64,000 bases of DNA from Cenococcum geophilum (GCA_050273025.1 CP158635.1:8308001-8372000), one strand, 5' to 3'; shown: positions 5,660 to 57,175, counted from the first letter of the stretch. Program-made: numbers and translations. Notes: a model not told the origin generated them from the sequence alone.

Positions 5660-6305
5660 TGCAGAGCTTCGTGTAGAGCCTCCGTACGCAGAGCTTCGCG
5701 CAAAGCCTCGTGCAGAGCCTCTGTACGTAGAGCTTCGTGTAGAGCCCTATGCAGAGCTTCGTGTAGAGCCTTGTGTAGAGCCTCGTGCAAAGCTTCGTGT
5801 AGAGCTTCGTGCAGAGCTTCGTACAGAGCCTCGCATAGAGCCTCTGTACGCAGAGCTTTATGTAGAGCCTTGTGTAAAGCCTCGCGCAAAGCTTTGTGTA
5901 GAGCTTCGTGCAGGGCTTTGTGTAGAGCTTCGTGCAGAGCTTCGTGCAGAGCTTCGTACAGAGCTTCGTGCAGAGCTTCGTACAGAGCTTCGTGTAGAGC
6001 CTCGTGCAGAGCCTCTGTACGCAGACCTTCGTGTAGAGCCTCGTGTAGAGCCTCGTGCAAAGCTTCGTGTAGAGCTTTGTGTAGAGCTTCGTGTAGAGCT
6101 TCGTGTAGAGCTTCGTGTAGAGCTTCGTGTAGAGCTTCGTGTAGAGCTTCGTGTAGAGCTTCGTGTAGAGCTTCGTGTAGAGCTTTGTGTAGAGCTTTGT
6201 GTAGAGCTTTGTGTAGAGCTTCGTGTAGAGCTTCGTGTAGAGCTTTGTGTAGAGCTTTGTGTAGAGCTTCGTGCAGAGCCTTAGTAGAGCTTTGTGCGGA
6301 GCTTT
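5660..6305. repeat. 12-bp minisatellite, consensus G(C/T)AGAGCTTCGT, about 50 units
   Basis: Read directly; most variants are C/T transitions. Confidence 0.95.
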
Positions 6306-6904
6306 GTGGTATTTTTATTGCAGCCAAAAATTAGGGTCTGCTTAAGTCGCGATTTTAGCAATTTTAGCAATTTGCAGCAACTTGCACAGGCTACTTGCGT
6401 ATTTGCAGCAATTTGCACAGGCTACTTGCGTATTTATAGTAAATTGCTGCAAATTGCCGCAAATTGCCAAAATTGCGACTTACGCAGGTTTTGCAGACCC
6501 CGATTTTCGCTTGCGACAACGTGCCCAAAAAAAAATTTCCTGATGTAGCTATAAAGATCTTATTATAGACTTAAATGCTTCTATAACTAGAATATTTTAA
6601 CCCCTAAATATAGATATAACTAAGTACGGACTCTCTAGACGCTAAGATATATCCTATTAACTCTATAAAACTTAACCTTATTAATAAACTGCTATCCCTT
6701 TATGTGGCAAAAGAGACTTTTTATATTGGGCGCTTTGGGCGCTCTTGCCTGGGTTAGCATGCTGCAGGCACCCTCGCTAGCGTGATTTTATTAGCAAGCC
6801 TCACCAAAACGCGTTAACATTGCGATGCCGATAAAATACTGCAGAAGGCCACCACGAAAAACATCAATTTTTTTTTTATTGAGGAAGTTGGGCAAAAAGC
6901 CGTA

Positions 6905-9876: not shown

Positions 9877-10919
9877 TTTTATTATTTTTTTTTTTATATC
9901 TATTATATTATACTACGTGCAATACTGCGCATGCAGCCTCTAGGCTATAGCGCTATAGTTCTATATACATAAATCCTTTCTAGGCAGCTTAATATATACT
10001 AGTAGCTAAGTGGACACTCTAGCCCGTTTTTAAAATGCTAGGGGAGCTCTAGTGACTGGTTTTTTTTTGTTTTGGTATTTTGCTTACTATAGTCTAGTTT
10101 ATACTAAGAAAAGGAAATCCTAGCTCTTTTATCTATTTCTGCTATATTCTGCCGTTTCTAGAGTAAAAAAAGCGCTCTAAAAGATAGATTTTAATTTTAA
10201 TAAAATAGTTTTATATATAAGAATAAGAGAAACCTAATAGCTTACTAGCTTGGAAGCAGCTACCAATTACCCCCATACGACTTTTTTTGGAATTCTATAC
10301 CCTATTTCTTCTCCTTGCTTAAAAAAAGGGTAGGGAATTAGTAATTAGTAGGTACTCTCCCCAAAAGTAATCTACTAATGGTATTTTATAAGGGCGAACC
10401 TCGTTATATAAACCCACTCCCATAGGAAAATTTTCATGAGGTTGTCTGTATAGGGTATAAATACCAATTCGCCCATACACCTTATATTTTACGTGCTAAA
10501 GTAACACGGGCCGGTCCCTTTCCCCCTACTATAGCTACCCTTGGTACATCTGCGGTACGCCTATAGTGCGGTATTGTGTGGTATATTGTGGTAGTAGTAG
10601 TAGTGGTGGTTGTGGTAGAGGTCGTCTGTAGCGCGGGCTGCAGACTAGTTGTGGTAGAGGTCGTCTACAGCGCGATGGCTGCAGACTAGCTGTGGTAGAG
10701 GTCGTCTACAGCGCGATGGCTGTAGACTGGTAGAGGTCGTCTGCGGTGGCGTCTGCGGTGCATCTGCGGCGCCCTTACCGTGCGGTGGATTGGCTGTCTG
10801 CAGTAGACTAGCTGTAGGGAGGGCTGTCTGTAGTAGACTAGTTGTAGGGAAGGCTATCTGCAGTAGACTGGTTGCAGTAGAATGGTTAGTTGCGGTAGTA
10901 ACGCGTCGCGGTAACGCGT
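9877..10919 (-). mobile_element. Non-coding poly(A)-tailed retroposon (SINE-like or non-autonomous LINE derivative), about 1.04 kb
   Basis: T-rich tail at 9877-9895. Imperfect 14-bp TSD CAACCTTACCCAAT (9863-76) / CAACCTTACTCTAT (10920-33). The Gypsy integrase frame resumes after it. GC-rich 5' head with ~30- and ~41-bp tandem repeats. Confidence 0.8.
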
Positions 10920-17127: not shown

Positions 17128-17907
17128 CTCAGGTGCCTCAGCCTCGAGTAGAGCTTTTGAGCAGAGCTTTTGAGCAGAGCTTTTGAGCAGAGCTCCGTGC
17201 AGAGCCTTAAGTAGAGCTTTGAGCAGAGCGTCGTGCAGAGCTTCGAGCAGAGCGTCGTGCAGAGCTTCGAGCAGAGCTTCGATAGAGCTTTAAGTGGAGC
17301 GTCATGCAGAGCTTCGAGTAGAGCTTTAAGCAGAGCTTCGAACAGAGCTTCGAGCGGAGCAGAGCTTTAAGTAGAGAGCTTCCCTATATAGACCTTGTAT
17401 TTAGGCTTGTTTTTAAAGGCCTTGTAAACGGCTTTGTATAGAGCTTTAAGCAGAGCTTATATAGGCGTTCGTGCAGGCGTTCGTGCAGGTTTATAGGGAC
17501 GTTTGTAGGGACGTTTGTAGGGACGTTTATAGGGGTATTAGGGGCACGGCTGGGCTCTATTGCGAATGCAATATATAGAGTAGGAGATAAGCTTTCAAAT
17601 CGAGGTATTGGCGAGCTGAGAAGCCCTGTATTAGGGGTCGAAGTACGACGTTAAAGGCGATACAACTGTCGTCCACCAGTGAGGCTGTACAGCCCTTACA
17701 AAACGCGCCCATAATCTCTTAGACCCTCGGAGAGAAATCCACCTCGGCGCTCTATAATTGGCTGCTAAAGCTAGCGCAAGCACTAACGCCTGCGGCGTAC
17801 ATTAGCTGCGGCGCCAGTCGCTAATTGGCTTAGATGTGGCGGTGCCAGCCGCTTATTGGCTCAGGAGGTAAGGTGGATTTTCTCTCCGAGGGTCTGAGTC
17901 AACTGAG
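17128..17907. mobile_element. Non-autonomous TIR element (MITE-like, 780 bp), probably piggyBac-related
   Basis: Imperfect TIRs CTCAGGTGCCTCAG-CC-TCGAG and (rc) CTCAGTTGACTCAGACCCTCGGAG, flanked TAT| and |ATA. Contains a GCAGAGCTTCGA 12-mer array (17148-17380) and an internal inverted repeat (17721-17744 / 17871-17895). Its right end is homologous to 21645-21950. Confidence 0.6.
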
Positions 17908-18642: not shown

Positions 18643-19773
18643 ATGATGAACAGCAATGCCTTAGCAATTGCAACCGCTATACTTAACGACGACGATCCGG
18701 TGTGGCCTTGGAAGCCCTATAAGCGATTCGGCCCTATCTATAAGCTTATTGACGTCTGGAAGTTAGAGGAAGAAGGAGGACTTAGTAACTACTATTTTAA
18801 GTTCTTTACTTGCTTTTCTAAAGATGAGGTTAGAGAGCTTGCTTAAGCGATTAACCCTCTTATAAAGTTTAATATTAATAAGCGTTTTGGCTGGCTAAAC
18901 GCCTCTATAAGCTCGCCAGAAGAATCTCTACTCGTCTTTCTCTAGCGCTGCGCCTATCCTTTGTCCCTTGGCCATATAATCGTGTTCTTTAGATATAGCC
19001 GACTATAGCTGTCGCGTGTTTAAAACGGTGTTCTGTAAGATATATAGAAGAAGTAGGGGATAATAATTGAGCTCGATAAGCAGATAGTAACACCTAAAAG
19101 GATTAAGGAGTATATAACGTCGATAGGCAGCTCGCTAGGCGACGAATTGATCTTTAGCTTTATCGACGGTATAGAAGTTTATATTTGCCGCCCTAGTAAG
19201 AAAGATTAGCAACCTTTCTATAGCGGCTATTATAAACAGCACTTACTTAGGTATATGGCGATTATCCTCCCAAATAGCTTATTTGGCGCGATCTTTATAG
19301 GCCTACCTTCCACTAGTAGTAACGCTATACTTTATATCTGGATTGGCCTTGGCGCGAAGTTAAAGGACTTACTAAGCTATTTACTAGATAGCGAAGCTTA
19401 ATTTGTTTATAGCGACGCTGCTTTTAGTTTGTAAGACTATATTCTAGGACTATATAAAAAAGCTAGAAATAAAACACTAACTCTAAGTTAGCGTGCTCTT
19501 AATTAGTAGCTATCTATAAAGAGGATTATAGTAGAGTACGGATTTAGCGGCGTTAAGAATACCTTTAAGCTGCTTACCTATAGTTAAGTACTTATAGTTG
19601 GATTATGCCCGGTTGGCTTATATATACTAATTATAGCCTTTTTATAGAACTATCGGACGTGTTTACAGAGGGGTAATTAGATTTTAAAGATATTTAGTCT
19701 ATTACCGCCCTTATTAGAGGTATATATAGCTAGTAGTAGTAATAGTAATAATAAGGAAGAGGTTAACGGGTAG
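18643..19773 (+). pseudogene. Harbinger-type transposase (DDE_Tnp_4-like), RIP-inactivated
   Basis: Motifs SFIDGIEVYICRP..QPFYSGYYKQH, FVYSDAAF, KRIIVEYGF and NYRTCLQRGN; stops are TAA/TAG. Confidence 0.9.
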
Positions 19774-21631: not shown

Positions 21632-22500
21632 CATCTTCTTAGAAATCAGACCCCCGGGGAAAAATTGCGCCACTCCTAAGCCAATTAGGTTACTTTACCC
21701 TAGTCCTATAGATTCCTGCAAACTCCTAGACCAATTAGATTGCACTGAGAGGAATTTCTCCCTAAGGGTCTAAGAGCTTATAGGCGCCCTTTATATAAAA
21801 ACTTAATGTTTCTTAATAGGCGACAGCTCTTCTATTATAACGCGATATCTTAACCCTTTTATAATGTCTAGTTATTATAAAAATACTATAAAGTAGAAGC
21901 CCTTTAATTTCTCTATCTATTGCATTAAATAATAACGTTATCCCTTAACCTGTTAATTATAGTATAACGTTATTAATAAGGCTGCGGCCAATAAGAGACT
22001 CTAATTCCTTCCTCTATAATAAAAACTACAGCAATATAAAGATATTTAAATTGCTTATAAATAGCTATCTACACTTAGTCCTTAGAGTTAAGCTTTATTA
22101 GATACTCCTTTTAATACTATAAGCTTATATAGAATGGAATCCTATAATAAGAACACCTATACTTTATCCTTGGCGGCCTTAAACGGCGCTTCTAGCCACG
22201 ACTATCCTCTATTGCCTTTATTATAGTGTTAATAGACAGGTCTATAAGTGCTTTTTAAGCCCCTTAGTATTATAATAAAGCCTTATAGTAGGAACTACGG
22301 TAGACTTATTAATAGGCTAGGTATATAGGTAAATAAGAAGTTAACAATATAATAATAACTAGTGGAGTGGTTACTTAATAGATTAACTCTAATTATATTC
22401 TAAGATTTATTAAAGAAGAGAACTATTTAAGTAGGGACTGTAGTCCTTTAAGTATTTAATACTGCGCCTAAGAAATATACTAAGTACGCTAGTACGTTAG
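21632..22500 (-). mobile_element. 3' remnant of a second piggyBac-like element
   Basis: The minus frame reads KALIDLSIN..KRRLRPPRIKYRCSYYRIPFYISL*Y*KEY. De-RIPped this gives YRCSHCGIPFCVSSRCWKEH, the piggyBac C-terminal Cys-rich domain. Terminal inverted repeat at 21646-21666 / 21752-21772. Ends approximate. Confidence 0.65.
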
Positions 22501-22820
22501 TATATTAGTATATTCCACGTTCCTATATTCCTATATTCCTATATTTTAAACTTATAATATAACTAGCTATATAACTTAGCTACCCCTTATTTTATAGCTT
22601 AATTAATTCTAGTACCTCTTATACTATCTTAACTAACCTATTTATATCTCTTTTTAGTAGTTATACTACTACTAATATAAGGTCCGTAATACTATCCCCT
22701 TCCTCTTTATCTTCGTTCTTAAAGATTTCCCTTATTTTTAAGTTGTTTATTAAAGGTATAGCATTCCCGTTTTTAATTCAGTGACCTTTATTATTTTTAA
22801 TACCTCTTATTAGATTCTTT

Positions 22821-23480
22821 ATGTCTAATTATTATAATTAGCTAGTAACTATTATTTTTTTACTAGGTAAAGTTATACCGTCCTATTCTTATTATAAGAA
22901 AAGGAAGTTAGTATATATTATAATTACAGCTCTATCTAGTTGCTAACCTTCCTTTTATACTAAGTATACGCGAGTAAATATATAATCGTCCTATAATATT
23001 TAATCTATCTTTAACGCTAAGTATACGCGTTTTATTAATCTTTAAAGTTTCTAACTTTCTTATCTAATCTATTATAGAGTCCCGTGTTTAATTTAAGGCA
23101 TTCTACCTTAAGGATAAACTTGCTACTACTCTTATTAAGGTATAGAAGCTTCGCAATAATAAGGAGCGGATTTATACTAAAGAGCGAAAAGTGTTTAAGG
23201 CTTAATAGACTACTTACGCTCGTTTAGTCCATTTTAAAAAGGGTTATAAAAAGGTACGCTCTAAGGAGTAGCGTCTTACTAAGTAAGGTCTCCGTAAGCT
23301 TAAGGCTAAAGAGGCTTAAAAGAATTCTAATTATAAAGAGGCAGAAACAGTTTATACGCTAGTAGTAGATCTCTTAGATAATCCGGCTTATCTATTACCT
23401 TTAATTAATCCCTTTATTTTTAGCTCCTTCTTAATACTACCTAACCTATTCTCTCCTAATACTCCTATACCTTTCCTATA
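22821..23480 (+). pseudogene. Antisense accessory gene of Gypsy-A: Zn(II)2Cys6-like cluster plus coiled coil, one putative intron
   Basis: ATG at 22821. Six TAT codons (RIP products of TGT) are spaced C-x2-C-x6-C-x13-C-x2-C-x8-C. Putative intron ~23023-23077, then a charged helical segment. The 3' end is approximate. Confidence 0.7.
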
Positions 23481-26400
23481 GTATTCTTTAGGTTTTATAG
23501 TAGCTCCTAGGTAGCCTTATTATAGCCTATCTACTTTACTTTATACTATATTTTATTGTTAATATCCTTATAATTTACAACCTTTAAAACCTACTATTTG
23601 TCTTTCTTTTATCCTCTATATATATCTACTTCGTTAATTAATAGCTCTGCGTCTCTATATGCTAGCTTTAGTATTATAATATGCTATATAAGGTAGATTT
23701 TTATCTTTACTAGTAAGTTAAGTCTATATATAACTTCTAAAATCTTAGCTATAATTTTAAATAGTCCTAGTCTAATATAGTCTAACTTCTTACTTAGCTA
23801 TCAACTTGTGAAATTTTTATATAATAACTATACTTTATCCCCCTCTTTTAGATCTAGTCCCTTAGATCTCTTAATATTATAGTACTTTTTTTTATTTTTT
23901 TAAATATTATTTTTATTATAAAATAAAGGTCCTTATAAAGATTTATTAGAGTTTCTATTTTTTCTTTTACTATTCTACTTATTTTTTTGCTTATTATAGT
24001 AATAATAATATTTTAGGCTTATATCTATAATTTACCTAAAATAGTAATACCTCTATACCTTCTTGTGGTGTTATATTATATATAAACTATATAACTAGTA
24101 ATAATAATACCTAATTATTCTATACGTAATTAATACAATATTTTAGATACTATTCTAGCGTCTAATTTAATCTTTCTATTTATCTATCTGTTTGTAAATA
24201 ATATATAGTAGAAGTTACTACTCTAACTCCTTATTTCGCTAAAAAATACTTCCGAAAATACTACTATAAATATTAAATCTCTATATAATATAATCTTACT
24301 TAGTACTCTATATCTTACAAAAACTCCTTTAATATAGATTCTAGCGATATCTTCCGCTAAGATTTCTTCTGTATATGCTATAAAGTAGCCCTATTTAGTT
24401 AACTTATCTACTATTATAATGGTTATATTATGCTCTTATTTAGTAATAAGATCTTTTAACTTTAGCAACTTTATAATAAAGTCCTATAATATAACTTCCT
24501 ATAGTCTTTCTAGTATCTTAATAGGCTATAGCTTTCCGTACGGCTTATACCTTATTAGCTTATTTCTTTGGTAATCTAAATATTCCTTTATAACTTTTTA
24601 TACTAAGCTCTAAATTCTATAAATTCTAAACTTCTCTTAAAGTCTTAACACTAAGCCTATAGCTCCATTATGTTCTTACGTTATTCCCCTATAGAAGTCT
24701 TTAATAAATTCTTCGATTATTCTCCTTAGGATATATATATTCGTTCTCTACTCGTACTAGTCTATTTCTAAGTATTTAGACTACGCCTCTTAAATCCTTT
24801 TTATCTAATTACTTTCCGGTAGCTTATATTTTTTAAATTACTATAATCTTAGAATAATTATACCTAATTAATCTATTACTATCCCTACGTAGTATTGCTC
24901 CTAATAGTTTCTTATTATTTTATAGTTTAGCCTTTTTACTAAGCGCGTTTACTCTTATATTCTCTATTCCCTTAGTATACTAAATCTTAAAATAGTATTC
25001 TATAAGTATTTATACCTATCTAACCTATCTATAATTAAGTTCTTTTATTATTAGGAACCTATTAGGTTTTTATAATCCGTCTTAACTATAAATAGTTTCT
25101 CTATACCTTATAAGAATACTCTCTATTTTTAAATACCATAACTATACCTAATAACTCCTTATTATAGATGTTATAGTTTAGTTCCAGTAGTATTATTTTT
25201 TAACTATAGTATACTACTAGATGCTATATATTCCTATACTTCTATAGTTAACATACCCCTAGTATAAAGTTTAATATATTTATTTCTATAACTATCTCTA
25301 ATTCTAGTTAATAGATTTTAAAGATTAGTTCCTAGGTAAATAACTCTTTAAGTTCTCTAAATAGTTTCTTTTATTTACTTCCCTATTCTTATAGTTCCTT
25401 TTTTTTATAAGCCTTATAAACGGCTTAATATTCTTTAACTACTATGCTATAAACCTTCTATAGTAGTTACAACCCCCTAAAAATAACCTTAACTATATTA
25501 TATTCTCTAGTTCTTATTAACTTACTATAGCTTTTGTCGGGAATAAGGCAAGCGGTCGTCACGTGACGCCGCGGCACTAGCGTAGCGAGGAGTCTTAAGC
25601 TCCTCGCCCTCCCTTATTCTAATTAAGAAGCTTTATTAACTAACATTACTATAACCTACTTAAGTAGTCATTATTGGTGAGTCACCCTATATAACTAATA
25701 CTAATTAGTGGTTAAATATACAGTTAACTATAGAGCAGCTAGGTTTTTAAATAGAAGAGATAGTCTTGTATAGGGGTGCTATATACGCTTATATGGAATG
25801 GATCCCGGCAATACTATACTACCTTAAACTTACGGAAAACTAGTAATAGAAGTGTCACTAAGTACTAGGAGATACTAAGTTGCGTCTATTACGTAGAACA
25901 ACTGCGTTTATAAAGATTTGGTTAAGTACTTTAGGTCAGAAGTGTTACTAAACCTAGGGTCCTAAGTTAACGTCTAAAACGCGTTAAACAACCTTTATTT
26001 CCTTATTCTTTTATTAAAAACGCGTTAAAAACAACTATCTTAATACCTTTAGTGTACCTCCGCAGACTATAGGATTACGATTACTACCTAATTACACGTT
26101 AAATAACCTTTAATAACAGCTATTATGGCGTTAACCTACCTGAAGAAGTACGAGGACGATATTAACCCAGAGATATAAAATACTGATATAACTAGCCTTA
26201 AAGATGTTAACTAGTAAAACTTAAACGGATTCTTATTATACCGTATAGTATACTATAAAGATAGTGAATATAACAACACTATGCTATGGTACTGCGTAAG
26301 GGAAGACTTTATTAGATAGATAAAGGGAATATAAACCCCTATAAAGAAGGATATTATATAAGACTTCTATAACTTCTTATAGAAGTATAGAGTCTTTATA

Positions 26401-33103: not shown

Positions 33104-34224
33104 GTAATACACCTCTAAAGATAAACCTACCTTCGCCTTTAACCCCTCTATATCTAATTTAACCCGTAACTTTAATATCGGATATTATACCCTAACGAGA
33201 GCAGGTATAGGATCCTATTGCTTTATAATTTAATAACTTTCGGACTCCACCGACCAGACTTATATCCCTACTATAGCCTATAATATAACTCCTACCTCCT
33301 CTATCTTAATCTTAAATTAGAGGTAGTTTAAAATTACTTATAGAGCTTACGAAGCTCTATTTAGATTAGGAGAAGAAGTTTAGCGGGGAATTATACAATA
33401 TTCTTAATTTAAAACTATATATCTTTTATAACTATTGCTAGAAGGTAGAAATAGAGTCTAATTAATACCACAACGCTTATTCCGTTATACTTAAGGGCCA
33501 AGCTAATACCTTCTATTATAATTATTTGGTAGGAAAAGGATATAATTTTAACCGCATAATATATAAGTTAAAATGCTACTTTAAAATAGAAGAGAATAAG
33601 TAGCAGTATATATTAGAATAGAGAGAGACTACCTTTCTAAGGATTATTGCTATAAACCTAGGTATCCCTTAGCTTAATTACCTTTAAAAGCTTTTTAATT
33701 AACTTTAAATAATTTAGCGTGATTTATCTAAATTATATTAAGAGAACTTTAGCCTATATAATCAAGTTATTAGCGTATACTAAGGCGTTAAAGAATGCAA
33801 CCTTACTCTTTTTAATCCTGTAAACACTTATAAAGGCGTATATACTTAATTAAGATCTTCTATTAGCACCGCTCTACGCTTTTAAAAAGTATAGCAATTA
33901 AACGCCTAACTTTAACCTACTTTAATTAACCCGCCCGACTAATATAATTATAACTAGACTAATTAAATATATAGTGGCCGTAGTAGGTAATACGGTAGAG
34001 AGTATAATTAATAACTATAAGGTAAAGGTAGAGGTCCTTATAGAGGTTTATTTCGAAGTAATTACTAAAAGAAGTGCTATATTTGTAAGAAACTAAATTA
34101 CTAGTTAACTAGGCATTCTCTTAATAAATAAAAGGAGGTATATAATAAGTTTCGCCAAAGTATAAGAAACGTTAGAAATTATAAGGTTATTACGGCCTAC
34201 TTTTAAAGCTTCCTAGTTTAATAT

Positions 34225-35892
34225 TGTCGGAATATATAGACAGGAATATATAGATAGAGGTTACGTGGTCATGTCTCTGATTAGTCATCCTTACGGTGAC
34301 TTATTAGCCCCCTACTTAGGCACTGCGATCCTTACGATCCTCTGCTTTCTATACCTATTAAACAACAAATAAATCCATTAGTTAATAGGCCAATTAAGTA
34401 CACTTAGGTAATACCGACATTAATTAATAGTTAACCTCACTGGTTGGCTATAGAGCAATAAGGTTCACTACCGCCCTAATAGCTTTAATTAAAAGCAGCA
34501 CTCTAATATCTAGTAGTAAAACTAGCACTTAGCAGCTTCGGCAGCACCTAATTCTAGCTAGCTTAGAATATATATAAATACGCAACGTATAAGACATTCT
34601 ATAGCACGCAAATTAATACCTAGTACGACCTCTTTACTAAGTATTAGTACCCCTAGCTTATTAACAGCACCTAATACCTAACCGCCCTTAGGCAGTACCC
34701 TATTAGCAGCTACCTTAGCAGCTACCTTAGCAGCACTTATGCAGTATACCAGCTTATATAGTATCCAGCGTTATAGTAACCTAATAGCCTTACGCAGTAC
34801 CCAATACCTAATAGCTTTACGTAGTAACCTAGTGTAATAATATAACTTAGCAGCAAACTAATATCTAGTACGCGTTTTAGTATATAAATTAATACCTAAT
34901 AGCCTTATATAGTACTCTAGCGTTATAGCAACCTAGTAGCGTTAGTAGCACCCAATACCTAATAACCTAGCAGCGTTAGCAGCATCCTATAACCTAGCAG
35001 CATTAGCAGTACCCCCTATAACCCTAATACCGTCTACCGCCTTCCTTACAGATCTACTACGTTAAAAATTATATTAATAGCACGCCCCTAAACGCCAGCG
35101 TGCCCCCTTCCCTCCTATGGCCTTTATAAGCCATGAATACTACATTAATAGAGTCTATATATTAGTGGCTTTATATATAAAGAAAGAACTGCTAGTATTA
35201 GAATATATAAATAAAGGTTATATAGTTATATAAGAATTTGTGCCGATACGCCTACAAATATAACCCCGTTACTGGCATTATACTACTACCTAAATAACCT
35301 TATCGCTAGTACCGTACTACTACCTACACAGATAATAATCGTGCCAATATACATACAATATATTAACCAACTGATTGCGCTAATACGCCTGCAATCTACT
35401 AACCAAATAATTGTGCCTATACGCCTACGATCTACCAACCGACCAATAGATAAGCTCTATGTTTAACCACTATCACTACCCAACGCTTATACCGTACTGC
35501 TATTATAATAGACTCTTACTGCCCTGCCTGTAGCTAACTGACTTCTACTGCTCTACCTGCGGTAATATAATTAACAACTGCTGCTCCGCCTGCAGTACTA
35601 CTATTACCTTATACTGCCTTCCACCTCTAGCTAAACCGACACCTTGCTGCCTTACTGCCTTCCTATAACGCTATAAGCATAAAGAAAGAACTGCTAGTGT
35701 TAGAATATATGGACAGGAATATATGGACAGAGGTTACGTAGTTACGTCTCTAATTAGTCATCCTTACGGTGACTTATTAGCCCCCTACTTAGGCACTGCA
35801 ATCCTTACGATCCTCTACTTTCTATACCTATTAGACAACGAATAAATCTATTAGTTAATAGGCCAATTAAGTACACTTAGGTGATACCGACA
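34225..35892 (+). mobile_element. Non-autonomous LTR element, copy 1 (1668 bp), with Copia-type cis signals
   Basis: 195-bp LTRs at 34225-34419 and 35698-35892, TSD AATAT, low-complexity interior with no pol, PPT AAAGAAAGAACTGCTAG. Confidence 0.92.
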
Positions 35893-38800
35893 AATATAAA
35901 GGCGTAAAAGATCTTAAGGGTAAGGTTAATAAGGCTAAACAGCTCCTTATAGATATAGAAATTAAGGACTACTTACCTAACCAATACTTTACTAAGTATA
36001 GTAAGGTAGATAGTATATAAACCGTCGCTATTCTTAATAACTAATCTACGCTCCATTTTATTATAAAGTTAAATATCTTTAATAAGCTAAAGAAGAGCTT
36101 TGCGTTCTCCTTTAATAATAAATACTTAGTGAATATCTTTTATAGTATTATACCAGATACTAGAGCCGCAGAAGTATCTATAGTAGGAGAACCTTAAGTT
36201 TAAGCCCTTTAGCAGCTTAATAACTCTATTTAAATTAACTATTTAACGGCAGGCTAATATACGATTTGTTTTAGCAAGGGTACTATAATCTCTCTTAGCA
36301 TAATTAGGGTTTAAACCCCCTTAGGGTGCATTACTTTCCACATTATTCCTATAAATACTCCATTTCTATTTTGTATTAGAGATATAAATAAATTAGGTAT
36401 TAAGCTTAACAACCTTAAGAATATACTTATATAGGGAGATAGTCGGGTACCTATTGTACGTAAGTAGGGTTACCCTTAGTTACTCCTTTATTAACTAAAA
36501 AAGAGTATTACTTAAAGCCACCTAACTAAGTCAGAGTTACGTTAACTATACTATCATTTTAGCTATCTATCTGTTTATTAATTGCTTAGGGTTCTTTACT
36601 AAATAGGCTATAAAGTTAAGGTTAAGGTAATTAAGCATCTTATAAAGTACTACTATTACTACTAAATAAACTAAAAGTCCCCTAGCCGATTTAAGTTCAC
36701 CCTTAAAGATAACTATAACTTTAACTTCTATATTATTGTTAACGTTATATATTTTAGCGGCAAGCTAGTACTCTAAGTTATTAACTTTTTAACCTCCTTT
36801 TAAGCCGCACGTTTTTTAAAGGATATATTAGCTAGAAATGTATAGAATACCCTATAATTATACTAGATTAATATCTACCTAGAACCCTCTAATTAAATTG
36901 TCTATAATATAGAAAAGAACTTCTTATCTATAGAGTTTTAATAATAGATAAAAGCAATGGTAATTAAGGTTAAGGAAGTCCCTATTAAGGCATATAATAG
37001 TATTAAAAAAGTAGAGCGATATTACGCGCTATTACGCCGCGTATATAAGATTATCTCTTTAAAACTAGAGAATACTAGTAAAGAACTTACCTTATAAATA
37101 GCTGTTAAAGCTATTAATAATTCCGCTAGCCTAGATAAACTTATACCTATATTACTAGTCTTTAGCGCCTACCTTTAAATAACTAATAATTCTTTACTAT
37201 CTCCCTCTATTATATAATAAGCTAAGGCTATTTATAAGGTAACGAAGGAGGTGCGATATCTCTATACTATACGCTAGGTTAACAACGCACTAGGAATAAG
37301 AAATAGCCTAAACACCTTAACTACACTTAATCTGCTACTTTAGTCTAAGGTATATATATAGTATAAAAAGGGAGAATAGTTAGGCCTATATTAACTTATT
37401 ATAATTAATAGTTAAACTTATACTATTTAGATGCCTTACAGACCCACTTAATTCCGTTTAATATTATTAAGCCTTACTATAAAGATAATAGTTCTAAGCC
37501 TTTATAGGATGCCCTAAAAGAGGCCCTAAAGGAGAACTATAATTAACGTGCTTTAGAAGGCGACTATAATTCTAATATAATTATAGTAAATACGCCGCAA
37601 CTATAACGCGTTAGAGGTTATCTAAAGGAATTATAAAATTACTAATATCTTATTAATTTTAAAGAGCAATTTATTGCCGCTATTAAAAATAGAGTTAAGT
37701 TATTAATGGCCTTTATAATAACTAAAGAAAAGGATAACTTTAAACTTACAAAATAGCTTTAAAAGGAAGGTTGTATTATAACTTTAAAAGCTCCTTTCTA
37801 AGTATCTAATAAGTAAGAAATTAATAGTCTTATTATAAGAGAAGTCTTTAAATTTAAGAAGTATAACCCTATTAAGTTTAATAGAGTTCGCATCTTTAAG
37901 TTAAGAATAGTTAATAAGATTAAAGGTAAAGCTACTAATGCCCCATTTAAGAAATTAAGGCTTATTATTTAAGGCTATAATAATAATAGTAAGGAGGTAA
38001 TTCTTATATAATTTTCTATAATTTAACGAGCTAGTCAGTAAGTTATTATTAAGCTAGCTCCCTCCTTAATAAAGAACGGAATAGTGGTTTATTTATAAGA
38101 TATTACTTAGGCCTATACCTAATTAGAGACGTACCTTTAGCGCTTAATACTAGTATACCTTTTAAAGTAAATTTGCTACCAATATCCCAAAGATATAATT
38201 ATGGTTATACTTAAGCTATTATATAGAATTGTAGAGGTAAGAACTTATTAGTAAACTACCTATAGTAAGCACTATAAAGAGAAGCTCTTAATAACTACTT
38301 TTATATTTAATTTATACTTCCTTATTATAATTATAAAAACCCTATTTAGGATTGTTGGTATATAAACTAATAATATAATTATCTTAGGAGACGACTAATT
38401 CTTAGCTCTTAAAGAAGATAAGCTAATAAAGGTAAATTTTATAGCAAAGCTAAAGGAAAAGCTTAATTTAATAACACTATTACTTTTTAATAAATGCATC
38501 CTCTCCCTAAATAAGGATTCTATTACTTTACGCTAGAAGGGTTAAGGTAAGAAGATTAATATTATTAACACTAATTCTCTAAAGCAAGGATATGTGGAGT
38601 AACGCGCTTATAAAGCTTATATTGCTTCTATCTGTTAACCTAAGGCTTTATTTAATCTCTCTATTGCCACCTAATATTAGAAATTAGCTAAGGATGACGT
38701 TCTTGCCCTAAATAAGCGTTTTTCCTAGTAAATAAACTATCTTAATTAGGGACTACTCTACGTGCCTATTAATCTTCCTACCACTAAGCTCTTTATATTT

Positions 38801-40421
38801 ATTAATAGATTATTTATAAATAATAAAGATTTTAGCTCCTAGTTAGGATATAAGATTATTATTACAAATAAATCTACTAGAGAGAATAACTTTATAATCT
38901 ATAGTAATCTTATCTATTAGAGCTTAACTAAGAGTAAGCGCGTTACCTAAAGCGTTTTAGTATTAGAGATATATGGAATAGTTAGTAGAGTTAATATAGC
39001 AATTGCAATTAGAACTACCCTAAAGATAATTATAGATTAACTCAAACTTCCTATTATCTCTATAGTTATATACACCGACTTATATTCCCTCTATAAGTGT
39101 TTAGTTAAGCTTAGTACTATAAAGGAGAAGTGCCTTATAATTAATATTATGGTACTTTAGCAATCCTATAAACGGCAAGAACTCTTTAAGATTTAATAAA
39201 TTAATGGCTAAGATAACCTAGTAGATGTAATAATAAAGGCAAACCTAAATAAGGCTTTAGAAATATTTATTAATATAAATACTCTACGTATACGGGTTAA
39301 AGGTTAGGTTAAAAGAGAGTAGGAGTATAATAATCTATAGACCCTAATTCTAACTAGCTAATTAGGATTTTCTATTCTTAGGATAAAAAATTGCTATTAG
39401 CTCGCTTATAACTAGCGCCTTTGCGGCCCTAATATAATATATACCTATAACTCTAAGTAAGAAAGTACTACGTGCTAAGAGGCGAATTTTAGGACAGTGA
39501 GGCTTATATTATAATAGCAATAGTAGGTAAGAAGGATTAATATTTATTACGCTAATTAAGTAGTATTTATATATAGATAGCAACTATAAAAGAAGAGTTG
39601 CTAGTGTCGGGAATAAGGCAAGCGGTTATTACGTGACGCCGCGGCACTAGCGTGGCGAGGAGTCTTAAGCTCCTCGCCCTTCCTCATTCTAATTAAGAAG
39701 CTTTATTAACCAACATCACTGTAACCTACTTAAGTAGTCGTTATTAGTGAGTTACCCTATATAACCAACAGCTTTAATTTTCTTTAGGTCTATACTAATA
39801 TAACCTAGTTTAATAATAAATTTAATAAAGTCCGTCTTTTTAGTAAAGAACTTGTATTTCTTAATTACTACTAACATCTATTCTTCTTATAGTCTCGTTA
39901 AAACCTATTTAATATATTCCCTATATTCTTCCTTAGTTATTAAGTAGATAATATTATTATTAAGTTATACTATAATAAACTTATTAAGGTGTTCTTCTAA
40001 TACGCTATTAATTTATTTCTAAAACGTTACTAGTGCGTTTATAAGTCCGAATTATATAACTAATGGCTTATATAGTCTTTCCTGTAATCTAAAGGCTAGC
40101 TTTTATTTATTACCTTCCTTAATTCTAATCTAATATTACGCCCATTTTAGATCTATCTTTATAAAGATTTACGCGTTACCTATCTAATTCTAAATTTCGC
40201 TAATTAATGGTAAAGGATACCTATTCTTCCTAGTAATGCTATTTAACTATTTATAGTTAATATATAGCCTAAGCTTTCCGTTCTTCTTTAGTATAAATAA
40301 TATTAGATATCCTACTAATAACTATAATAGTTTAATATATCCCTTTTATAGGTTTTCCTAGATAAACTCTTTAAGTGCTCTTAACTCTTCTTTAGTTAGC
40401 TTATAAATTAGAAAAAGCTTT

Positions 40422-42088
40422 TGTTAGAATATATAGACAGGAATATATAGATAGAGGTTACGTGGTTACGTCTCTAATTAGTCATCCTTATGGTGACTTA
40501 TTAGCCCCCTACTTAGGCACTACAATCCTTACAATCCTCTGCTTTCTATACCTATTAGATAATAAATAAATCCATTAGTTAATAGGCTAATTAAGTGCAC
40601 TTAGGTAATACCGATATTAATTAATAGTTAACCTTACTGGTTGGCTATAGAGTAATAAGGTTTACTACCGCCCTAGCAGCTTTAATTAAAAGTAGTACTC
40701 TAGTACCTAGTAGTAAAACTAGTACCTAGTAGCTCCGGCAGTACCTAATTCTAGCTAGCTTAGAATATATATAAATACGTAATATATAAGACATTTTATA
40801 GCACGTAAATTAATACCTAGTACGACCTCTTTACTAAGTACTAGTACCCCTAGCTTATTAACAGCACCTAACACCTAACCGCCCTTAGGTAGTACTCTAT
40901 TAGTAGCTACCTTAGCAGCTACCTTAGTAGCACTTATATAGTATACTAGCTTATATAGCATCTAGCGTCATAGCAACCTAATAGCCTCGCGTAGTACCTA
41001 ATACCTAATAGCTTTACGTAGTAACCTAGTGTAATAATATAACTTAGCAGCAAACTAATATCTAGTACACATTTTAGCATATAAATTAATATCTAATAGC
41101 CTTATATAGTACTCCAGCGTTATAGTAACCTAGTAGCGTTAGTAGCACCTAATACCCAATAACCTAGCAGCGTTAGCAGCATCCCACAACCTAGCAGCAT
41201 TAGCAGTACCCCCTATAACCCCAACACCGTCTACTACCTTCCTTGCAGATCTACTACGTCGAAAATCACATTAATAGCACGCCCCTAAACGCTAGCGTGC
41301 CCCCTTTCCTCCTATGGCCTTTATAAGCCACAAATACCACATTAATAAAGTCTATATATTAGTGGTTTTATATATAAAGAAAGAACTACTAGTGTTAGAA
41401 TGTATAGATAAAGGTTACGTAGTTATATAAGAATTTATACCAATACGCCTACAAATACAACTCCGTTGCTGGCATTATACTACCACCCAAACAACCCTGT
41501 TACTAGTACCGTACTACTACCTATATAGACAATAATCGTGCCAATATGCATACAATATATTAACTAACTAATTGCGCTAATACGCCTGCGATCTACTAAC
41601 TAAATAATTATGCTTATACGCCTGCGATCTACTAACCGACTAATAAACGAGCCCTATATTTAACCACTATTACTACCCAACGCTTATACCGTACTGCTAT
41701 TATAATAGACTCTTACTGCCCTGCCTACAGCTAACTGACTTCTACTACTCTACCTGCAGTAATATAATTAACAACTACTGCTCCGCCTATAGTACTACTA
41801 TTACCTTATACTACCTTCTACCTCTAGCTAAACTAATACCTTACTGCCTTACTGCCTTCCTATAACGCTATAAGCATAAAGAAAGAACTGCTAGTGCTAG
41901 AATATATGGACAGGAATATATAGACAGAGGTTACGTGGTTATATCTCTAATTAGTTATCCTTACGGTGACTTATTAGCCCCCTACTTAGGCACTGCAATC
42001 CTTACGATCCTCTACTTTCTATACCTATTAGATAAGAATTAATTTAACAGTTAATAGGCCATATAAGTGCACTTAGGTAATACCAACA
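40422..42088 (+). mobile_element. Non-autonomous LTR element, copy 2 (1667 bp)
   Basis: Colinear with 34225-35892; TSD GCTTT; inserted in Gypsy-A pol. Confidence 0.92.
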
Positions 42089-42621
42089 GCTTTAAACTTA
42101 TTCCTAGTTCTAATTCTATTTTATTATCCTATGCTATATACTTTAACAGCTTTTTACTTTCTAAGCTTTATAACTTTTTACTATACTTATAGTATCTTTT
42201 TAGTATATAGGATAACCCTTACTCGATTTCCTTATATATTGCTCTAACTTAGTACTATACCAACTTAGTTACTATACGCCTCTTATATCGTTAAGTATCT
42301 CTAATATTAACTTATTCTATAATCTAATTAATCTTTAGATTATATTCCTATAACTAAGGTATACCTAATACTACCTTATCCTGTCCTAATAGTAGGATAT
42401 TAAAAGACATTTTAATATATCTCCCTTTAATAGTTATTTAAATTCGTCCTATTTTAAGATTAATAATACCTCCTTTATAGGCTATTAAATTTCCTAAAAT
42501 TGTAACTAATAAATAAGGGTGCTTCTTCTATCTATAAGGTAGTCCTATACGCTTTACTACTACTAGTAAAATATAGTTCCTTATTACTCTACTATCTATT
42601 AGTACTTTAAACTATTAATCT

Positions 42622-43700
42622 TACGGCTATAGGTTTTTAAGACTTTTGCTTTAGCGATATAATATCTATAAAAGCATCCTTATACTAGTCTTTAATAAGG
42701 ATAATTATATATCCGGTAATATTATTACATTAGGCGGCCTATCCAAATCGCTGTAGTATTATATTTAAGCTTTTATTGGGATAATAACCGTATATAATAG
42801 AACGGAAAATATTTAGAATATCTATACTATAGGCTAGGGCGCCTAACGTAATAAAAATGCGGATAGGTAAGTCTTCTATATAGAAATTTTAATACTCCAT
42901 ACTCTTATTATATTTGGATAATATTACTTCCCTCTATCTACCTAATTTGGCCGTAACTTTATTACTACTAAGATAGCGATATAGGAGGATAGGGTAGCGT
43001 ATTTTGCTAGTAATCTAGCTTTATTTATTATAATTAATAGTAATATTTTCTTATAGGTATTTACTTAGGAAAAGGAGGATTAAATACTTAATAAGAATAT
43101 AATATTATTAGCCCTATTAATTAAGTATATAGAAAAACAAAAGAGAGTAAAGACTAATATAGAGAAACGGGCGGTATTTCTAGATATATTATACGAGCTT
43201 GTAAATAAAGCTACTAGATATCTATATAATATTCTACTTAAGCTATATAAGGAGATAAGTCTATTATTTAAATGTCTACGCTATTACTCTAATTACGATA
43301 ATTTATTATAGGCTTATAAGGAGTATAATATTATTATACTATATACTAGGAATATTGCAAAGAGTAAGTACTTAAAGGATCTATTTATAAGTATTAAGAA
43401 GTGGATTAAGGAATAGCTTAATATAATATATTAGGATATAGTTTAGAGTCCAATTTCTAGTTATATTATATCTAATAATTAAACCCGCATACTCTATATC
43501 TAACTTTCACTAACTTATAAGGGCCTTAAGCGGATATTGCCTAAATGGGATTATAGCTTCCTAGGAGATAAAGTAGACTCGCTTATCCACTTTATTTATA
43601 AGAAGGATACGTAATACTTTAGTACTAATGTCTTATAGGCTGCGTTGTAATCTAGTAGACGTATTACTATATCTAGAAGCTCGTTATAGATGCCGTTACT
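42622..43700 (+). pseudogene. RIP-mutated ORF remnant of unknown family (about 360 codons, one frameshift near 43300)
   Basis: One frame is interrupted only by TAA/TAG (e.g. AFIGIITVYNRTENI*NIYTIG*GA*R, LKRILPKWDYSFLGDKVDSLIHF). No TE motif recognised. Confidence 0.55.
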
Positions 43701-56880: not shown

Positions 56881-57175
56881 AATCTACTACTAAAAAGTTA
56901 TAAAAAAACCAACTCTCTGTAACCTATAGCGATTTTAATTATTTATATAGTAAGTAGGAGTATACCCTAGCTAAGTTCTAGCGTTTTTGGGTTAAAGAGT
57001 CTTAAATACTTAATACTTAACTAGCTGCGTACGCTTAGTTATCCCGTATTAAGAAGGTTTATAAAAAGGTCTGTTTAAAGGAATTTTGTTTAGCTAAGTA
57101 GGGTCTTTATAAACTTAAATAAAAGAAGGCTAAAAAGGGTTTTAATCTATTAGAAAGAGAAATAACTTTAAATAG
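56881..57175 (+). mobile_element. Fragment of a Gypsy-A-related element (antisense accessory ORF region); target of Gypsy-C and Copia-3
   Basis: Reads AAYA*LSRIKKVYKKVCLKEFCLAK*GLYKLK, aligning with TTYARLVHFKKGYKKVRSKE*RLTK*GLRKLK at 23209-23305. Confidence 0.7.

Follow-up and report, generated by a model that had tools for sequence, protein, structure and literature searches.

The chromovirus copy that lies in the 64,000-nucleotide stretch of Cenococcum geophilum DNA analysed here (the window) raises the question of whether a fungal retrotransposon can carry, on the strand opposite to pol, a regulatory gene of its own and, if so, what kind of protein this gene encodes. A preliminary description of the same DNA had placed an antisense, intron-containing gene of Zn(II)2Cys6-like appearance between the chromodomain and the polypurine tract (PPT) of the element. 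A comparison with related copies and less-mutated relatives established that the antisense gene is real and contains an intron, and that positions 22800-23481 of the plus strand hold an accessory gene that is genuine in its Ty3/gypsy chromovirus family but has been killed by RIP in this copy. The nature and the role of its product are more difficult to define, and the assignment of the protein to the GAL4 type, which had also been proposed, stays a hypothesis.

The window consists of AT-rich fungal DNA of the RIP type, with a GC content of 25-30% over most of the 19-64 kb region and a TpA/ApT ratio of 1.77 in the stretch that contains the antisense gene. Pfam searches identified the pol domains of a Ty3/gypsy element on the minus strand (Table 1), and the least-mutated related copy (L002) contains, in the same frames, an aspartic protease, RVT_1, RNase H, SH3 and a chromodomain. 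The match of the chromodomain in L002 (24.0 bits, E 3.8e-5) is just below the cut-off of 25.1, and the domain was undetectable by Pfam in the window copy itself. In the chromodomain frame of L002, the first stop is located directly after ...KVQEY. The pol stop of the window (TAG at 23458-23456 on the minus strand) is likewise found right after the chromodomain, and a stop at this position (CTA or TTA on the plus strand) is present in all of the 62 copies that were aligned. A full element was found at another locus (L008), where the two LTRs (2500-2927 and 10382-10809) both map to 22264/22271-22695 of the window. The element in the window has been split by nested insertions into the segments 22264-25534, 39770-40421 and 42090-42622, and its 5' part is absent.

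In the RIP-corrected consensus of 77 LTR copies, the unit GTACGTCR occurs four times in tandem, with CCCACGT repeats after it, at the equivalent of window positions 22485-22512; these repeats, which were picked up in a scan run without a control, may be candidate protein-binding sites. The same consensus contains eight CGG and 11 CCG triplets, including a CGG-N13-CGG arrangement within the four GTACGTCR repeats, according to an equally exploratory scan without a control. Other features of the window include a match to DDE_Tnp_4, a transposase of the Harbinger/PIF type, in the read-through translation of approximately 19162-19650 on the plus strand (E 4.7e-12), and ~120-bp tandem repeats at 5660-6308 and 17140-17488. 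The latter two arrays lie in GC-richer DNA, are 70-77% related to each other and yield, in read-through translation, a low-complexity A/E/L/R/S repeat.

Table 1. Features of the chromovirus 3' region and of its antisense gene (coordinates of the window; TGY counts refer to the 62 aligned copies)
Feature	Coordinates	Strand	Description
3' LTR of the chromovirus	22271-22694	-	~428 bp; TG..CA ends in the 77-copy consensus
Polypurine tract (PPT), adjoining the 3' LTR	22695-22714	-	purine run directly upstream of the LTR start
Antisense gene	22800-23481	+	~208 codons, two exons; between pol stop and PPT
Exon 1	22800-23022	+	leader of 25 residues with a second Met following at 22875; motif of six Cys; last base begins the split Trp codon
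Six former Cys codons	22884-22994	+	TAT at 22884, 22893, 22914, 22956, 22965 and 22992
Cys site 1	22884	+	TGY kept in 3/62; others TAT
Cys site 2	22893	+	TGY kept in 3/62; others TAT, one GAT
Cys site 3	22914	+	TGY kept in 2/62; others TAY
Cys site 4	22956	+	TGY kept in 0/62; TAT 47, TAC 12
Cys site 5	22965	+	TGY kept in 22/62; others TAT
Cys site 6	22992	+	TGY kept in 11/62; others mostly TAY
Intron	23023-23077	+	55 nt; GT donor, mutated to AT in the window; CTAAT as branch-like site; AG acceptor; frame +1
Exon 2	23078-23481	+	long, charged helix of predicted coiled-coil type; tail rich in Pro and hydrophobic residues; ends with TAG at 23479-23481
Tail-to-tail overlap	23456-23481		26 nt; last 8 codons of the antisense gene with the end of pol
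Chromodomain, pol C-terminus	23459-23600 (approximate limits)	-	mapped from L002 by constant offset
Integrase C-terminal SH3 (Tf2-1-like)	23668-23842	-	PF24626; E 0.0033 in the window, E 5.8e-6 in L002
RNase H domain of reverse transcriptase (RT_RNaseH_2)	25124-25376	-	PF17919; E 1.2e-8

The plus-strand frame with codon starts divisible by 3 reads, from 22875 onwards, IPSYSYYKKRKLVYIIITALSSC*PSFYTKYTRVNI*SSYNI, and the six TAT codons reported previously are indeed located there with the spacing C-x2-C-x6-C-x13-C-x2-C-x8-C. The count of six is correct for the motif sites; the stretch as a whole holds seven TAT codons. The additional codon, at 22890, had already been interpreted as a mutated Arg codon, in agreement with its states in the 62 copies (CGT in 8, TGT in 8, CAT in 5 and TAT in 33). 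The sole real TGC codon of the stretch (22941) is also a mutated Arg codon (CGC in 17, TGC in 10 and TAC in 30 of the 62 copies). When all six frames of the window were searched with a loose pattern, [YC]x2[YC]x6[YC]x5-13[YC]x2[YC]x6-8[YC], four matches were obtained at three independent places, and 200 simulated windows of matched composition yielded a mean of 1.51 matches, with at least one match in 78% of them. Taken alone, the TAT pattern is no more than the chance expectation, and we judge it to be real because of the related copies and the less-mutated relatives, not because of the bare pattern. The matches at 35495 and 41692 were rejected as candidates; both fall in a low-complexity, CTG-rich stretch that is present twice, and represent no gene. 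This stretch is carried by a 1.67-kb unit with 198-bp terminal direct repeats, of which two copies with 91% identity are present (34224-35900 and 40421-42096), the second one being located inside the chromovirus.

A protein search with the frame 23077-23478 detected 25 metagenome ORFs with 65-83% identity. A scan of metagenome contigs identified 228 related stretches, from which 78 loci were retained, and the 62 copies spanning 22760-23560 were aligned; self-BLAST revealed no second full copy of 22821-23480 within the window. All 62 aligned copies are RIP-mutated, with a GC content of 27-39%. Five of the six sites vary among these copies between TAY and TGY only, a few isolated codons excepted, unlike the Arg-derived codons at 22890, 22941 and 23028, each of which shows a four-way mixture of CGN, TGN, CAN and TAN. 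Because of this difference, the five sites are considered to behave as Cys codons that were hit by G-to-A changes. Site 4 is Cys in none of the 62 close copies, and its assignment rests on five of eight more distant relatives.

These relatives were obtained in several steps. An exhaustive search with an exon-2 profile (alignment A2) yielded 105 hits, all of which are unannotated and 39-161 aa in length, with no long annotated homologue among them; two follow-up searches then yielded relatives with little RIP. In the eight less-mutated relatives, Cys is present at sites 1 to 6 in 8, 7, 6, 5, 8 and 5 sequences, respectively, and the remaining residues are all Tyr, which occurs at the six sites only as the expected product of RIP. 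The spacing 2-6-13-2-8 is shared by the window and all eight relatives. All six Cys residues are present in P0132 and P0138. P0132 reads MPSCSRCAKEGLVCVAIAAPAGRQPSSCAECTRANMRSFCDV, a natural sequence that the de-RIPped reading of the preliminary description had anticipated nearly letter for letter, and P0138 (239 aa) reads CSRCAEKKLVCIAIAAPSGRQPSSCVECTKSNMRSSC, continuing to the C-terminus. The preliminary description had also named Tyr or His in place of Cys in less-mutated copies as an observation that would speak against its reading; Cys is present in them, and His or Arg was never found. Judged from these sequences, all six positions are ancestral Cys residues.

Two derivatives of the gene were also encountered. 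The metagenome relative P0108 contains the leader and the first Cys half (MPSCSRC...) followed by the helix, and is a deletion derivative without the second tri-Cys half. In the window itself, a second copy of exon 2 was found at 56892-57173 on the plus strand (hmmsearch i-E 3.2e-19, profile positions 8-93). This copy is truncated and divergent, contains eight stops and ends at 57173, where another repeat starts; it points to a second chromovirus family in the window that also had the gene.

The gene was present within the interval 22821-23480 given in the preliminary description, but this interval was too short, and the ATG at 22821 lies within the N-terminal leader. The start codon at 22800 is ATG in 15 of the 62 copies and ATA in the window, and the leader and motif of exon 1 are matched by P0132 and P0139-P0143. 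The intron-like segment (23023-23077) and the long charged helix that follows it in the next frame (23080-23478) are both present as described before. The intron is 55 nt long in 57 of the 62 copies, and the stop of exon 2 is TAG in 55. The donor is located within a TGT codon, which survives in three of the 62 copies (the sequence TGTACGC survives in one), and nearly all copies have AT.

At the predicted junction, T/GT...AG/GG, splicing would join T and GG into a codon for Trp. P0026, P0084, P0132 and P0138 read ...SDAEW/SRVQS... straight over the junction, with the predicted Trp residue. The intron is kept in four other sequences: P0139 and P0140 have Cys followed by intron-coded residues, and translation in the exon-2 frame continues through the intron in P0031 and P0130, the latter on a 120-kb contig. 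The four intronless sequences are found on contigs of 0.9-1.4 kb, which could be either RNA or DNA; contigs of this kind would fit transcripts, and the splice junction appears to be in use. P0144 reads AEC-TFH-VRS instead of AEW-SRV at the exon junction and thus corresponds to neither the spliced nor the intron-retaining form; this could reflect an alternative junction or a partly deleted intron. In the window copy, the loss of the start codon and of the donor GT is accompanied by 12 in-frame stops (four in exon 1 and eight in exon 2). This copy has been killed by RIP and can make no protein.

The ancestral product of ~208 residues consists of a short basic leader, the six-Cys module, a helix of ~100 residues and an acidic/hydrophobic, Pro-rich tail. 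The AF2 models of P0138 (17 sequences) and P0132 (29 sequences) contain a helix at residues 98-200 and 58-151, respectively, with pLDDT values of >90, and the Cys module, modelled without zinc, reached values of only 49-72 in both. The predicted helix begins ~7 residues after the sixth Cys. In the best heptad register, the hydrophobic fraction at positions a and d is 0.59 versus 0.39 overall, which is a modest signal. The part best conserved in the relatives is the motif KVREKVRSKE-x-RLVEQGL near the end of the helix, which appears as KGYKKVRSKE*RLTK*GL in the window. A Foldseek search with the model gave no match, and VIA-align detected generic long coiled coils only, at a Z score of ~7.7 that is within the common range of this tool and in rows that cover helix residues 52-152 alone.

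The spacing of GAL4-type clusters is C-x2-C-x6-C-x5-12-C-x2-C-x6-8-C, the range that the preliminary description had quoted as well. In the window and in all eight relatives, the central loop comprises 13 residues, one above this range. Scores against PF00172 (Zn_clus) were below the cut-off of 21 bits, the best being 14.5 (P0141), 13.6 (P0132) and 13.5 (P0142), and nothing was obtained for P0138 at E up to 1. Only profile positions 18-38 are aligned, the first C-x2-C-x6-C of the protein falling on the second half of the profile. Zn_clus is the sole recurring Pfam family (five of 14 members at E up to 10, best E 0.04), and the Pfam search of the window copy gave nothing for the plus-strand gene at E up to 0.01. 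Among PDB sequences, the best match of P0132 is the zinc cluster of PPR1 (1pyi), with an E of 0.56 that is not significant; the profile built from the domain detected no zinc-cluster structure in PDB at E up to 10, and its only match was a myosin/GCN4 coiled coil (E 0.64). The ESM Atlas returned 30 Ascomycota clusters of ~200 aa with scores of 0.90-0.91, which we regard as a lead only, as we do the automatic name of the top cluster, 'Zn(2)-C6 fungal-type domain-containing protein'. With the N-terminal part alone, the scores in the Atlas were 0.85 or less and no Zn_clus family was found.

The earlier assignment to the GAL4-type Zn2Cys6 family is therefore kept as a hypothesis only: the PF00172 match is below the threshold and confined to one tri-Cys half, the loop is one residue above the textbook range, and the fold model of the module is of low confidence. 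Because the PF00172 match is sub-threshold and partial, and because the search of PDB with the domain profile yielded no zinc cluster, we do not classify the protein among the Gal4-type factors, although it is built like one. Minimal Gal4-type factors contain a Cys module, a long helix and an acidic tail in that order. Similar to these factors, the antisense protein has six Cys residues, arranged as two C-x2-C-x6/8-C halves ahead of a long helix and a tail of acidic/hydrophobic character, and it matches PF00172 and PPR1 weakly and locally. It differs from them in its sub-cut-off scores, its loop of 13 residues, its size of ~208 aa, the lack of a middle homology region and its location on a transposon.

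We estimate the probability that the protein binds zinc, forms a dimer and regulates its own element by binding DNA at roughly 40%. According to this reading, zinc would be bound by the six Cys residues, two ions being the most likely number, in a Gal4-like binuclear or a two-knuckle arrangement, and the long helix would pair two chains. The protein would enter the nucleus and act as a sequence-specific regulator of the element that encodes it. The antisense transcript would begin in or beside the 3' LTR; in P0138, the open frame extends upstream through the complement of the PPT into LTR sequence. Such a system would be similar to the antisense bZIP gene HBZ of HTLV-1 and to the extra antisense ORFs of plant Gypsy elements. 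Lying antisense to the genomic RNA, the intron would escape removal before reverse transcription, and it would therefore be inherited by new copies.

A serious possibility besides the regulator reading is that the gene belongs to the element and its product contains another small zinc module (a relative of DUF3716 or two zinc knuckles, for example) with protein or RNA as its partner, so that the protein would be a structural or adaptor factor. The sub-threshold and partial nature of the Zn_clus match speaks for this explanation, as does the scarcity of basic residues between the second and third Cys in P0132 (CSRCAKEGLVC). P0140 matches DUF3716 (PF12511) over its full length (profile positions 3-59 of 59), with 15.4 bits against a cut-off of 22. 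In addition, the named Atlas clusters nearest to the N-terminal part include one of DUF3716 (score 0.75, a lead only), and DUF3716 genes are present on a class II transposon of Zymoseptoria tritici, as stated in the accessible text of PMC8232023. However, DUF3716 is matched by only one of the 14 members and below the cut-off, Zn_clus alone recurs among the Pfam families, and the order of the Cys module, the long helix and the acidic tail is that of minimal Gal4-type factors.

We consider it improbable that the gene is a mere passenger, that is, a captured host gene fragment that has no role for the element or serves the host only. In favour of a passenger, the functions considered for the gene are hypothetical, and the Atlas contains many Ascomycota clusters of ~200 aa with similar features that may or may not lie in retroelements. 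Nevertheless, the gene occupies the same position in 62 of the 62 aligned copies. Subfamilies of 39, 13 (including the window), six and two sequences and three singletons were distinguished among these copies, so that at least seven subfamilies or singletons share the gene, and it is also found in more distant relatives with flanks that match the PPT and the LTR. The overlap between the end of the gene and the pol stop and a coding-type periodicity of the substitutions likewise argue against a passenger.

This periodicity was revealed by tallying transversion-polymorphic sites per codon position, transversions being used because RIP makes only transitions. The numbers of such sites at positions 1, 2 and 3 are 15, 11 and 25 in exon 1, 12, 11 and 21 in the leader, and 47, 46 and 70 in exon 2, compared with 9, 11 and 5 in the intron and 17, 13 and 10 in an adjacent pol stretch read in an arbitrary phase. 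In the pooled coding parts, 74, 68 and 116 of 200 sites each are polymorphic (chi-square ~16), and the conserved C-terminal half of exon 2 taken alone shows no excess at position 3 (24, 27 and 30). The excess of transversions at the third position indicates coding constraint. After RIP correction, two plus-strand frames are open and the other (minus-strand) frames are not. The lengths of exon 2 in the subfamilies (378, 399 and 420 nt) differ by in-frame steps of 21 nt, corresponding to one heptad.

These features also bear on the idea that the antisense RNA is what matters, through double-stranded RNA or small RNAs, and that the open frame is incidental. Antisense transcription of retrotransposons has been proposed as a regulator in plants (accessible text of PMC7264820), and Boty-type elements of Botrytis give small RNAs (accessible text of PMC8365987). 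We assign this explanation a low probability, however, in view of the third-position transversion excess, the in-frame length changes, the conservation of the Cys residues and of the motif near the C-terminal end of the helix, and the conserved stop codon. That there is no gene at all, and that the TAT pattern is a chance outcome of AT-rich, RIP-mutated DNA, is hardly credible: about 1.5 loose-pattern matches are expected per window and the CTG-rich repeat fits the pattern by chance, but natural relatives with six Cys residues and a spliced junction, together with the other comparative evidence, have already refuted this explanation.

The regulator reading can be extended to a broader proposal, which we regard as rather unlikely in its full form. 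A widespread lineage of ascomycete chromoviruses might consist of 'complex' retroelements that encode their own Gal4-like dimeric zinc-cluster transactivator on a spliced antisense transcript with its start at the 3' LTR; this protein would bind the repeats of the cognate LTR for activation or anti-silencing, and the many unannotated ~200-aa Ascomycota hypothetical proteins of the Atlas would be products of this gene. If this is true, the protein would be a fungal counterpart of retroviral Tax and HBZ. HBZ is the antisense bZIP gene of HTLV-1; it is located on the minus strand near the 3' LTR, has a spliced form and encodes a small nuclear regulator with a coiled coil. By analogy, both are retroelement genes encoded on the strand opposite to the genomic RNA beside the 3' LTR, both have a spliced form, and the product of the present gene, like HBZ, would be a small regulator. 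HBZ differs from it in belonging to an animal retrovirus and in having a basic leucine zipper rather than a Cys module, and there is no homology between the two.

These results also have a more general meaning. RIP can mask cysteine-rich genes as runs of TAT codons, and such genes can be recovered by multi-copy comparison. Furthermore, if the protein binds its own LTR, fungal retrotransposons would carry their own transcription factor, which would bear on their escape from silencing.

Among fungal transposons, a small Cys-containing domain of unknown function encoded by an accessory gene has been described in Zymoseptoria tritici, where REP9-1 and REP9-2 are DUF3716 (PF12511) genes on a class II transposon (accessible text of PMC8232023). 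P0140 gives a full-length but sub-threshold match to this domain; the Zymoseptoria genes differ from the present gene in residing on a DNA transposon and not on a retrotransposon, and the DUF3716 match is limited to the single sub-cut-off member mentioned above. No description of a fungal retrotransposon with an antisense gene of zinc-cluster-like type came up in our literature searches. The word 'antisense' is absent from the accessible text of PMC3248453, and in that of PMC2864245 a figure legend only labels an 'additional ORF with unknown function'.

The layout of the antisense gene itself is already published, both for plants and for fungi. Plant Gypsy elements contain antisense ORFs between pol and the 3' LTR, namely GENE23 of maize Grande and those of rice RIRE2, Silene Retand and Phaseolus PvRetro13; according to the accessible text of PMC7264820, most copies of a family retain these ORFs, certain of the encoded proteins are nuclear, and their function is unknown. 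They resemble the present gene in position and orientation. They differ in their plant hosts, in belonging to non-chromovirus lineages and in having no clear similarity to known proteins, and a zinc-cluster-like module is not mentioned in the accessible text of that article (PMC7264820).

The closest layout is that of brtn, the additional antisense gene of Boty-like elements (Zhao 2011, Virology 417:248, as cited in the accessible texts of PMC8365987, PMC7264820 and PMC4227169). In both cases, a chromodomain-bearing fungal Gypsy element carries an additional gene that lies between pol and the 3' LTR and is read from the other strand, as seen in the window with pol on the minus strand and the plus-strand gene between the pol stop and the LTR (Table 1). 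This likeness is one of published position and orientation, and brtn may or may not share the six Cys residues, the intron and the helix of the present gene. Antisense extra genes of LTR retrotransposons are thus known in plants and in Boty of Botrytis, none of them with a known function; the family described here adds to these systems a concrete, testable protein with a six-Cys module, a long helix and an acidic tail, of which P0132 and P0138 are natural intact relatives.
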